This document shows, one piece after another, positions 3,399-3,776 of a stretch of 22,931 nucleotides of DNA. This DNA is from Desulfobacterales bacterium HSG2. GTDB taxonomy: Bacteria > Desulfobacterota > Desulfobacteria > Desulfobacterales > 4be13. Under the pieces are notes generated by a model that searched no databases, was not told the origin of the DNA, and saw nothing but the letters and a program-made list of their open reading frames with translations. Every line of letters starts with the position of its first letter. Positions within the stretch are counted from its first letter, which is position 1. The DNA lies in contig JAUCGI010000075.1 in the NCBI GenBank assembly GCA_030378035.1, positions 1 to 22,931 on the forward strand, in the 5' to 3' direction. Position numbers and translations under genes: made by a program.

Positions 3399-3776
3399 GC
3401 TTGCACTCTTGCTCTCAGTCTTTGCACTTAAACTTAAACTTAAACTTAAACTTAAACTTAAACTTAAACTTAAACTTGCACTTAAACTTAAACTTGCACT
3501 TTAACTTAAACTTAAACTTGCACTTGCACTTAAACTTAAACTTGCACTTTAACTTAAACTTGCACTTGCACTTGCACTTGCACTTAAACTTAAACTTGCA
3601 CTTAAACCCGCACCGCACTCAGAGTCCGGCCTGAACGTGATCTGTTAATGTCTGAGTGCAAGTGCAAGTTTAAGTTAAAGTGCAAGTTAAAGTGCAAGTG
3701 CAAGTGCAAGTGCAAGTGCAAGTTAAAGTGCAAGTGCAAGTTTAAGTTTAAGTTTAAGTTTAAGTGCAAGTGCAGC
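3399..3776. repeat. Hexanucleotide microsatellite (CTTAAA/CTTGCA)n forming a roughly 380-bp imperfect palindrome: left arm CTTAAA/CTTGCA units, right arm their reverse complements TTTAAG/TGCAAG
   Basis: Read directly. The left arm (3420-3607) has about 33 hexamer units; the right arm (3653-3776) has about 20 reverse-complement units. The central dyad GCACTCAGA...TCTGAGTGC flanks a 27-nt loop near 3640. It ends 2 nt before ORF 3778 and 74 nt before ATG 3850. Confidence 0.9.

Follow-up and report, generated by a model that had tools for sequence, protein, structure and literature searches.

A non-coding palindrome of about 356 bp, assembled from hexanucleotide units, occupies positions 3421–3776 of a contig from Desulfobacterales bacterium HSG2, which we analyzed over its entire 22,931 bp (the window). 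It separates a gene for a DUF697 membrane protein from a gene for a FAD-dependent oxidoreductase. The hexamer-unit palindrome is real and statistically far from chance, and we consider it somewhat probable that it represents the hyper-expanded core of a lineage-specific palindromic interspersed repeat, rather than a control element for the neighboring gene. In the best-supported form of this explanation, the large element is related through its core to a repeat family of Desulfococcaceae bacterium HSG8 and works like transposable elements of the miniature inverted-repeat type (MITEs), BOX elements or Correia repeats; it is not a demonstrated MITE. This assignment draws on the anatomy of the element, a family of such palindromes in HSG2 and HSG8, arms that do not mirror each other, and the absence of the element upstream of orthologous genes.

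Anatomy and folding of the palindrome

We parsed the sequence into 6-nt units in a register starting at 3421 (Table 1). The 30 CTTNNN units of the left arm comprise 18 CTTAAA, 10 CTTGCA and 2 CTTTAA, and Tandem Repeats Finder recovered both arms, with a higher-order period of 24 nt in the left arm and 18 nt in the right. Near the center, an inner 9-bp dyad, in which GCACTCAGA (3615–3623) pairs with TCTGAGTGC (3651–3659), closes a 27-nt loop (3624–3650). With one mismatch allowed, the pattern (CTTNNN)4 matched 55 times in the window vs 0.15 expected, and the top gapless inverted repeat measures 117 nt with 89% complementarity. An earlier reading made from the letters of this DNA (the sequence-only reading) had put the arms at about 33 units and about 20 units and had also noted the dyad, the loop and the distance to the downstream start codon, and our counts confirm this description: there are 32 and 20 units, and 73 nt separate the end of the right arm (3776) from the oxidoreductase ATG (3850). 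The extent of about 380 bp given there stands for 3421–3776, and does not for 3399–3420, where the sequence is degenerate and hexamer-like at most.

As that reading also anticipated, the element can form a very long imperfect hairpin, and can do so on either strand. The minimum free energy (MFE) of the RNA was −176 kcal/mol for the plus strand (z = −15.8 relative to dinucleotide shuffles) and −187 kcal/mol for the minus strand (z = −13.7). It had also named, as a possible refutation, arms that pair no better than shuffled repeat units, and this is what we observed. When the hexamer units were shuffled inside each arm with all else kept, the folding energy was −170.6 as observed vs −169.3 ± 6.9 after shuffling (P = 0.4), and 40% of the shuffles folded equally well or better. 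Mirroring of the unit order was comparably weak, with a top gapless match of 12 units vs 10.4 expected (P = 0.16) and a longest common subsequence at P = 0.47. Pairing stems from unit composition and not from mirrored order: rather than an inverted duplicate, the arms form a pair of arrays with complementary unit types, whose unit order has not been selected for a perfect stem. The unit-shuffle result therefore counts against a specifically maintained palindrome. With 32 units facing 20, 12 surplus units stay unpaired, and the predicted fold leaves a run of eight CTTAAA single-stranded. Slippage, which the sequence-only reading had proposed from the unequal arms, is plausible; the arm lengths together with the differing periods fit independent slippage in each arm, as does the unmirrored unit order. 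A strand-bias test for RNA-level selection over the six copies described below gave the sense strand no consistent advantage.

Ordinary short reads can resolve the structure, and it is not a fold-back chimera, because its k-mers are unique, its arms differ and its flanks are intact genes. Between 3381 and 3820, every k-mer of at least 55 nt is unique with reverse complements counted, exact inverted repeats reach at most 34 nt and self-overlapping direct repeats at most 46 nt; on either side, the sequence continues into a distinct intact gene (DUF697 and oxidoreductase, respectively). The collapse of the region through repeat-induced misassembly, which the sequence-only reading had named as a possible refutation, has thus left no internal sign, given k-mer uniqueness from 55 nt upward. 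Unit counts are those of the assembly. We accordingly consider it very unlikely that an assembly or amplification artefact, through chimeric inverted junctions or mis-resolved repeats, produced the palindrome or its unit counts. The contig does come from a short-read-style draft assembly of an uncultured bacterium, unit numbers inside the 48-nt pure runs are difficult to verify, and inverted chimeras are a known by-product of whole-genome amplification. However, arms that differ in both unit order and length are not a fold-back copy, and similar palindromes are found elsewhere in the contig, in the separately assembled HSG8 and in the Natroniella sulfidigena AHT3 assembly, which bears a strain name.

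Related palindromes in HSG2, HSG8 and beyond

Two smaller copies, designated W2 and W3, accompany the large element (W1) in the window, and three others are present in 30.5 kb of sequence from HSG8, the closest sequenced relative with copies (80% identity between the major vault proteins). The hexamer core in HSG8 is part of a dispersed element of 132–155 bp with non-hexamer flanks that are 94–100% identical between copies. The ends of this element form an imperfect inverted repeat (21–25 of 34 positions) with a terminal AGG(G/T)ATTTCCC (HSG8-type end sequence, AGGGATTTCCC), and each whole element folds as one hairpin. An nhmmer profile built from the three HSG8 copies matched W2 (E = 3e-8), W3 (E = 1e-3) and the large element (E = 8e-3), in the hexamer core only. 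In addition, the 24 nt at 3777–3800 are the exact reverse complement of an HSG8 left arm (L126, 8612–8635). All six copies from the two genomes are intergenic and hairpin-forming, and the CTT arm lies 5′ of the AAG arm in 6/6. Four occupy divergent and two co-directional intergenic regions, with none between convergent genes, and these contexts fit insertion wherever non-coding space exists. The large element contains 52 units (32 + 20), vs about 8–17 in the other five copies (4–12 per arm). About 110 kb of sequence from HSG7 and five further related contigs yielded no CTTNNN palindrome, and the HSG8-type terminus was not found in viral contigs.

W2 is located in the 1.2-kb region between the metacaspase gene (minus strand) and the major vault protein gene (plus strand). 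It directly follows the middle one of three copies of a repeat of about 80–100 nt (GTGAATCTTCTGCGT...GAATTGCYGAAT; 7190–7670, 87–88% identity) upstream of the major vault protein gene; in the remaining two, a TTGACA-like hexamer occupies that place. The upstream regions give no evidence that W2 is orthologous to the HSG8 palindrome: those upstream of major vault protein orthologues are long, repeat-rich and unalignable, and the HSG8 palindrome upstream of its major vault protein gene lies at a different distance and beside a different neighbor gene. W3, in which an 8-bp outer stem (TTCAGGTT/AACCTGAA) encloses the hexamer units, is located in the divergent region between a UvrD-like helicase gene (minus strand) and an M50/HlyD gene (plus strand). 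A search for M50/HlyD homologues, bearing on the conservation of W3, returned a nearest relative at 66% identity and none from HSG8. Solo HSG8-type termini were observed as well, CGGGTAGATTATTTATTG... (L120, 4540–4580) and GGGTATTTTATTTTCCGGAAATCCC (L126, 9903–9939), 60–130 nt upstream of the start codons of the oxidoreductase orthologue (L120) and the HSG8 major vault protein gene (L126); these could be remnants or an independently used motif.

Table 1 Features of the large palindrome, its neighboring genes and related copies. A dot denotes an element listed without strand.
Feature	Sequence	Position	Strand	Description
Outer left flank	HSG2 window	3399–3420	.	GCTTGCACTCTTGCTCTCAGTC; degenerate, hexamer-like, off register; CTTGCT/CTTGCA-like units typical of smaller copies
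Left arm	HSG2 window	3421–3612	.	32 hexamers: TTTGCA, 30 perfect CTTNNN, CCCGCA
Center	HSG2 window	3613–3656	.	Unique, not common to other copies
Right arm	HSG2 window	3657–3776	.	20 hexamers: 11 TGCAAG, 5 TTTAAG, 3 TTAAAG, terminal TGCAGC
Outer right flank	HSG2 window	3777–3800	.	CTTGATAAAGATAAAGAGCAAGAT; 24 nt
DUF697 membrane protein gene	HSG2 window	2886–3377	+	Upstream; open reading frame open from 2793; stop codon 43 nt before left arm
FAD-dependent oxidoreductase gene	HSG2 window	3850–5355	+	Downstream; two N-terminal rubredoxin-like domains, rubredoxin-reductase C-terminal domain
W2 (small copy)	HSG2 window	7435–7516	.	CTTGAT/CTTAAT/CTTGCT/CTTAAC units, TGTTCG center, degenerate NNNAAG arm
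W3 (small copy)	HSG2 window	19642–19721	.	CTTGAT/CTTAAC/CTTGCC units, 10-nt center, GATCAA-type arm
HSG8 copy	L004	2721–2861		
HSG8 copy	L004	6142–6273		
HSG8 copy	L126	8567–8721		

A number of points weigh against placing the large element in one family with the HSG8 repeats. The three window copies share the hexamer core only, without clear common flanks, and HSG8-type terminal repeats or flanks were not found in the window. At the three HSG8 copies themselves, no target-site duplication is visible (flanks TTT|TAC, GTA|AAG and TTA|AAA). The sample is small: the 23 kb of HSG2 and 30.5 kb of HSG8 supplied six copies in total. By our own estimate, a chance origin of the 24-nt match at 3777–3800 is not negligible in view of the small unit vocabulary, and convergence of low-complexity sequence could account in part for both this match and the profile hits. 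Moreover, CTT/AAG is kept every 6 nt in independent copies, with variation at positions 4–6 (AA/GC/GA); such invariance hints at a constraint beyond the reach of plain slippage, one that could come, for example, from a protein reading spaced triplets. Finally, hexamer-stem hairpins in unrelated phyla suggest that an origin de novo is also possible.

The apparent constraint on the units can be read in more than one way. An AA/GC(/GA) alternation at positions 4–5 recurs as AAA/GCA in the large element, AAT/GCT/GAT in W2 and AAT/GCT in HSG8, and could alternatively be inherited from one ancestral core, compounded by search bias. The CTT requirement was partly imposed by the search patterns used (ascertainment), and the degenerate arms of W2 and the HSG8 copies do not keep CTT/AAG, showing CCT, TTT and AGG instead.

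Scanning genome contigs for six CTTNNN units returned at least 118 loci, mostly coding Glu/Lys/Gly-rich repeats; the matches listed included an HSG8 copy, together with a few hairpins from other phyla that have hexamer stems. The latter comprise hairpins in Ignavibacteriaceae (L050, minus strand, 4255–4375), Fibrobacteres (L099, minus strand, 5845–5985) and Natroniella sulfidigena (L115, minus strand, 185–300), the last at a locus that also carries heptamer arrays before a start codon. Those of L099 and L115 have the opposite layout, with the AAG/GAG arm first. Simple-sequence stems may thus be a wider phenomenon, able to arise repeatedly. Two other searches were discarded: a metagenome scan with a 20-mer from the loop hit two unrelated coding contigs by chance, and a gapped hexamer-palindrome pattern retrieved only low-complexity sequence of the (CTT)n/(GAA)n type and unrelated hairpins.

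Stems built from heptamers or nonamers were seen in this lineage. HSG8 carries a heptamer palindrome, (TTACGAT)12 facing (AATCGTA)2.6 (L004, 3878–3993), which fills the 125-nt gap between two co-directional genes and abuts a start codon. At L127 (1206–1280), (AGGGGTG/AGGTAAG)n faces (CCTCTCA)n between convergent genes (MFE −63 kcal/mol, z about −10). Within the window, three tandem hairpins with a common foot, TTTCGTGG...CCACGAAA, lie at 19160–19345, upstream of the UvrD-like helicase gene in its divergent region; 9-nt units, (CACGAAACA)n facing (TCTTTCGTT)n, lengthen their stems. Outside this lineage, arrays of CTTGAT and of GATCTTT, both long, precede CTTTAAGATT arrays at 2600–2900 of L034, from the metagenome-assembled genome KR_bin-0880 of a Thiotrichales member, a gammaproteobacterial sulfur oxidizer. 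The CTTGAT hexamer of this locus is a unit found in W2 and W3.

Gene setting and competing explanations

The genes flanking the large palindrome are co-directional. Around the three window copies, sigma-70-like promoters and intrinsic terminators were not predicted beyond shuffled expectation, and no terminator-like site was predicted between 3200 and 3900. An intrinsic terminator would have a short G+C-rich stem with a U-tract after it, and four of the six family copies occupy divergent promoter regions. The window has no match in Rfam 15 at gathering thresholds, and a permissive Rfam search returned eukaryotic microRNA-precursor models alone, all sub-threshold, which reflects merely the presence of a long hairpin. 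Two further readings were rejected. A 77-codon open reading frame (ORF) across the left arm would encode (Leu-Asn/Leu-His)n and has no ribosome-binding site, and the 6-nt units are contiguous and without spacers, unlike the 24–48-nt repeats and unique spacers of a CRISPR array.

The closest orthologues of the oxidoreductase (65–70% identity), at loci L119 (from HSG7) and L120–L123, have no tandem-array palindrome upstream, have different neighbors and show no synteny; the exact HSG2 protein was found on a single contig. Because these orthologues lack the element and copies occur at unrelated loci, the palindrome is not tied to the oxidoreductase gene. The role in expression control that the sequence-only reading had drawn from placement is therefore unsupported: orthologues do without the element, the same palindrome type appears at unrelated intergenic sites, and promoter- or terminator-like sites are not predicted around it.

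Much the same evidence bears on a gene-specific cis-regulatory RNA, in which a hairpin placed in the 5′ leader, or else intercistronically between DUF697 and the oxidoreductase, would be selected to control processing, stability or read-through. The very stable sense-strand fold (−176 kcal/mol, z = −15.8), the orientation of the flanking genes and the location of 5/6 family copies on the 5′ side of at least one gene are consistent with this possibility, and the lack of a predicted promoter between palindrome and ATG makes read-through plausible. We nevertheless regard it as unlikely, since the antisense strand folds better (−187 vs −176 kcal/mol), so that a G-U bias in favor of the sense strand is lacking, the arms do not mirror each other and leave 12 surplus units unpaired, and the same kind of element recurs at unrelated loci; to this are added the orthologues (65–70% identity) that stand in other contexts without the element, and Rfam, where no family matches and the sub-threshold microRNA-precursor models are the only hits. 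Decidedly improbable is the broader proposal that hexamer-array palindromes of the form (CTTNNN)n-loop-(NNNAAG)m are a functional class, whose slippage-set stems would serve, at many loci of sulfate reducers that are large, multicellular or polyploid, as graded rheostats of local DNA structure or transcript processing. The reader of such stems might be a protein recognizing CTT/AAG triplets every 6 nt, and the 52-unit copy upstream of an oxygen-defense-type oxidoreductase would be one extreme setting.

A dedicated reader is also central to the suggestion that the units form a binding-site array for an oligomeric protein, either one that coats DNA or an RNA-binding ring or filament that reads AAG/CUU triplets every 6 nt, with 3 nt between them. 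Ribbon-helix-helix proteins coat direct and inverted short repeats, and TRAP reads spaced GAG/UAG triplets. Such a mode of recognition would agree with the strict 6-nt spacing of CTT/AAG and variable positions 4–6 in all copies, and with the recurrence of the AA/GC alternation in independent copies. The probability that we assign to it is very low, however, as no candidate binding protein emerged, 52 sites are far above what any known ring binds, the CTT requirement is partly a product of the search patterns, and the degenerate arms of W2 and the HSG8 copies lose CTT/AAG (CCT, TTT, AGG). We also consider very improbable a contingency (phase-variable) locus, at which gain or loss of units would switch or tune oxidoreductase expression across the many genome copies or cells of this bacterium. 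Long, nearly pure simple-sequence arrays should be prone to slippage, the arms are unequal, and many other short tandem arrays of the contig adjoin start codons. Against this, the array lies outside ORFs and promoter hexamers, 6-nt changes at a distance of 73 nt from the ATG have no obvious on/off effect, and the downstream gene encodes a housekeeping-type redox enzyme, not a surface or restriction function.

For the hyper-expanded core of an interspersed repeat, the explanation that we favor, the following course of events can be proposed. The repeat core would consist of two facing hexamer arrays, (CTTNNN)n followed by (NNNAAG)m, and replication slippage would have amplified CTTAAA and CTTGCA independently in each arm, reaching 32 and 20 units. 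The element would be selfish or neutral in origin and not built for the oxidoreductase gene. That gene is probably transcribed through the palindrome, because no promoter is predicted in the 73 nt before its ATG. Its mRNA would then carry an imperfect double-stranded RNA stem of about 120 bp which, by analogy with Correia elements, may be cut or stabilized by RNase III-type processing. Any effect on the transcript would be incidental, arising through this long imperfect stem.

Comparison with known repeats and implications

Among described repeats, BOX elements of Streptococcus pneumoniae (boxA-(boxB)n-boxC) combine fixed ends with a variable tandem core and are regarded as MITE-like, with larger arrays varying more in length, and they are thought to affect co-transcribed genes via secondary structure (PMC3049150, which also defines the MITE). 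The palindromes studied here are likewise small non-coding interspersed repeats predicted to form stem-loops when transcribed, and the HSG8 copies resemble BOX in joining conserved ends to a variable hexamer core. In contrast, the internal modules are 6 nt instead of the 45-nt boxB, two facing complementary arrays themselves form the stem, and the window copies are without conserved end modules, the ends not being conserved between W1, W2 and W3.

Correia repeats of Neisseria and ERIC-IRU repeats of enterobacteria are intergenic palindromes of about 100–160 bp with terminal inverted repeats, often co-transcribed with their neighbors, and the HSG8 copies agree with them in size, terminal inverted repeats and whole-element hairpin. 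They differ in that the TA target-site duplication was not seen in HSG8, an integration host factor (IHF) site and promoter-forming ends were not found, the stem is made of simple-sequence units, and the 3421–3776 copy surpasses any Correia or ERIC element in length by a factor of 2–3. RNase III binds the hairpins of Correia elements and either cleaves or protects them (PMC2649163). A MITE would be expected in many dispersed, similar, non-coding copies that are AT-rich and highly base-paired; six copies were seen, three of them in the 23 kb of HSG2 and the others in 30.5 kb of HSG8, all intergenic and hairpin-forming. Terminal inverted repeats are imperfect in the HSG8 copies, reduced to an 8-bp outer stem in W3 and absent at 3421–3776, the window having no HSG8-type terminus, and the HSG8 copies lack target-site duplications. 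MITE membership is therefore not established for the window copies, because terminal repeats, a target-site duplication and, with a single HSG2 contig covered, a transposase were not found. REP and BIME elements are 20–40-nt imperfect palindromes with a conserved tetranucleotide and an associated RAYT, and the size and simple-sequence stem observed here are unlike REP.

Heptamer TAACTGA direct repeats in intergenic regions of marine Beggiatoaceae, cyanobacteria and Bacteroidetes have been proposed as post-transcriptional regulatory sites; they comprise 2–6 copies ending a few nucleotides before the ATG, with one inverted case reported in that genome (PMC4679880). The likeness lies in the concentration of short tandem arrays in intergenic regions of large, filamentous or multicellular bacteria, whereas the palindrome described here is hexameric and not heptameric, inverted, 52 units long and 73 nt from the ATG. 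Contingency loci of Haemophilus and Neisseria share with it long, nearly pure short-unit arrays that are expected to change length by slippage, but the present array is palindromic and lies outside a reading frame or promoter spacer. Our literature search yielded no specific description of such hexamer-array elements.

The contig is crowded with further repeats. Two heptamer arrays, ACTTTTA ×5.4 at 7921–7958, which ends 22 nt before the major vault protein ATG (7981), and ATCAAGC ×16.7 at 11927–12041, which fills the gap between an ORF end (11927) and the likely ATG (12062) of a Glycos_transf_3 (anthranilate phosphoribosyltransferase-like) gene, resemble the TAACTGA arrays of Beggiatoaceae (PMC4679880), here in a Desulfobacterales genome. 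A 78-nt tandem repeat forms two large arrays, at 13179–13910 (~6 + 3.5 copies) and 14678–15006 (~4.3 copies), with 92–94% identity; each of its units contains the palindrome GGGGGATTGCCAAATCCCCC, and the arrays flank a perfect 36-nt ×3.2 repeat at 14473–14589. A second 78-nt repeat pair is found at 6783–6860 and 6915–6992. After the oxidoreductase gene (5446–5620), two direct copies of about 85 nt each contain the palindromes GTTCCCACGC...GCGTGGGAAC and GGGACGCTCCGCGTCCC, and a 139-nt tandem repeat of 3.4 copies (90% identity) lies at the contig end (22234–22707). Proteins of eukaryote-like type are clustered on the contig: a MACPF-plus-hemopexin protein (1331–2860), a metacaspase with an SH3 domain (5706–6743, minus strand) and the major vault protein (7981–10476). 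The major vault protein homologue is 831 aa long and has thousands of bacterial relatives in the protein collection; the best orthologues of the contig proteins are 66–81% identical.

Long palindromes are generally unstable in bacteria, and a stem of several hundred bp is unusual for that reason. If the proposed explanation is correct, a stem of simple-sequence units can grow to this length, and an undescribed family would be added to the catalogue of bacterial interspersed palindromic repeats. A new regulatory mechanism is not revealed at present. On the practical side, annotators and assemblers should be warned of spurious (Leu-Asn)n ORFs, microRNA-like hits and uncertain copy numbers at such sites. 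Dense intergenic arrays of short tandem repeats have been observed in large bacteria of filamentous or multicellular habit, in Beggiatoaceae and cyanobacteria; the finding, if true, would add a Desulfobacterales lineage to these.

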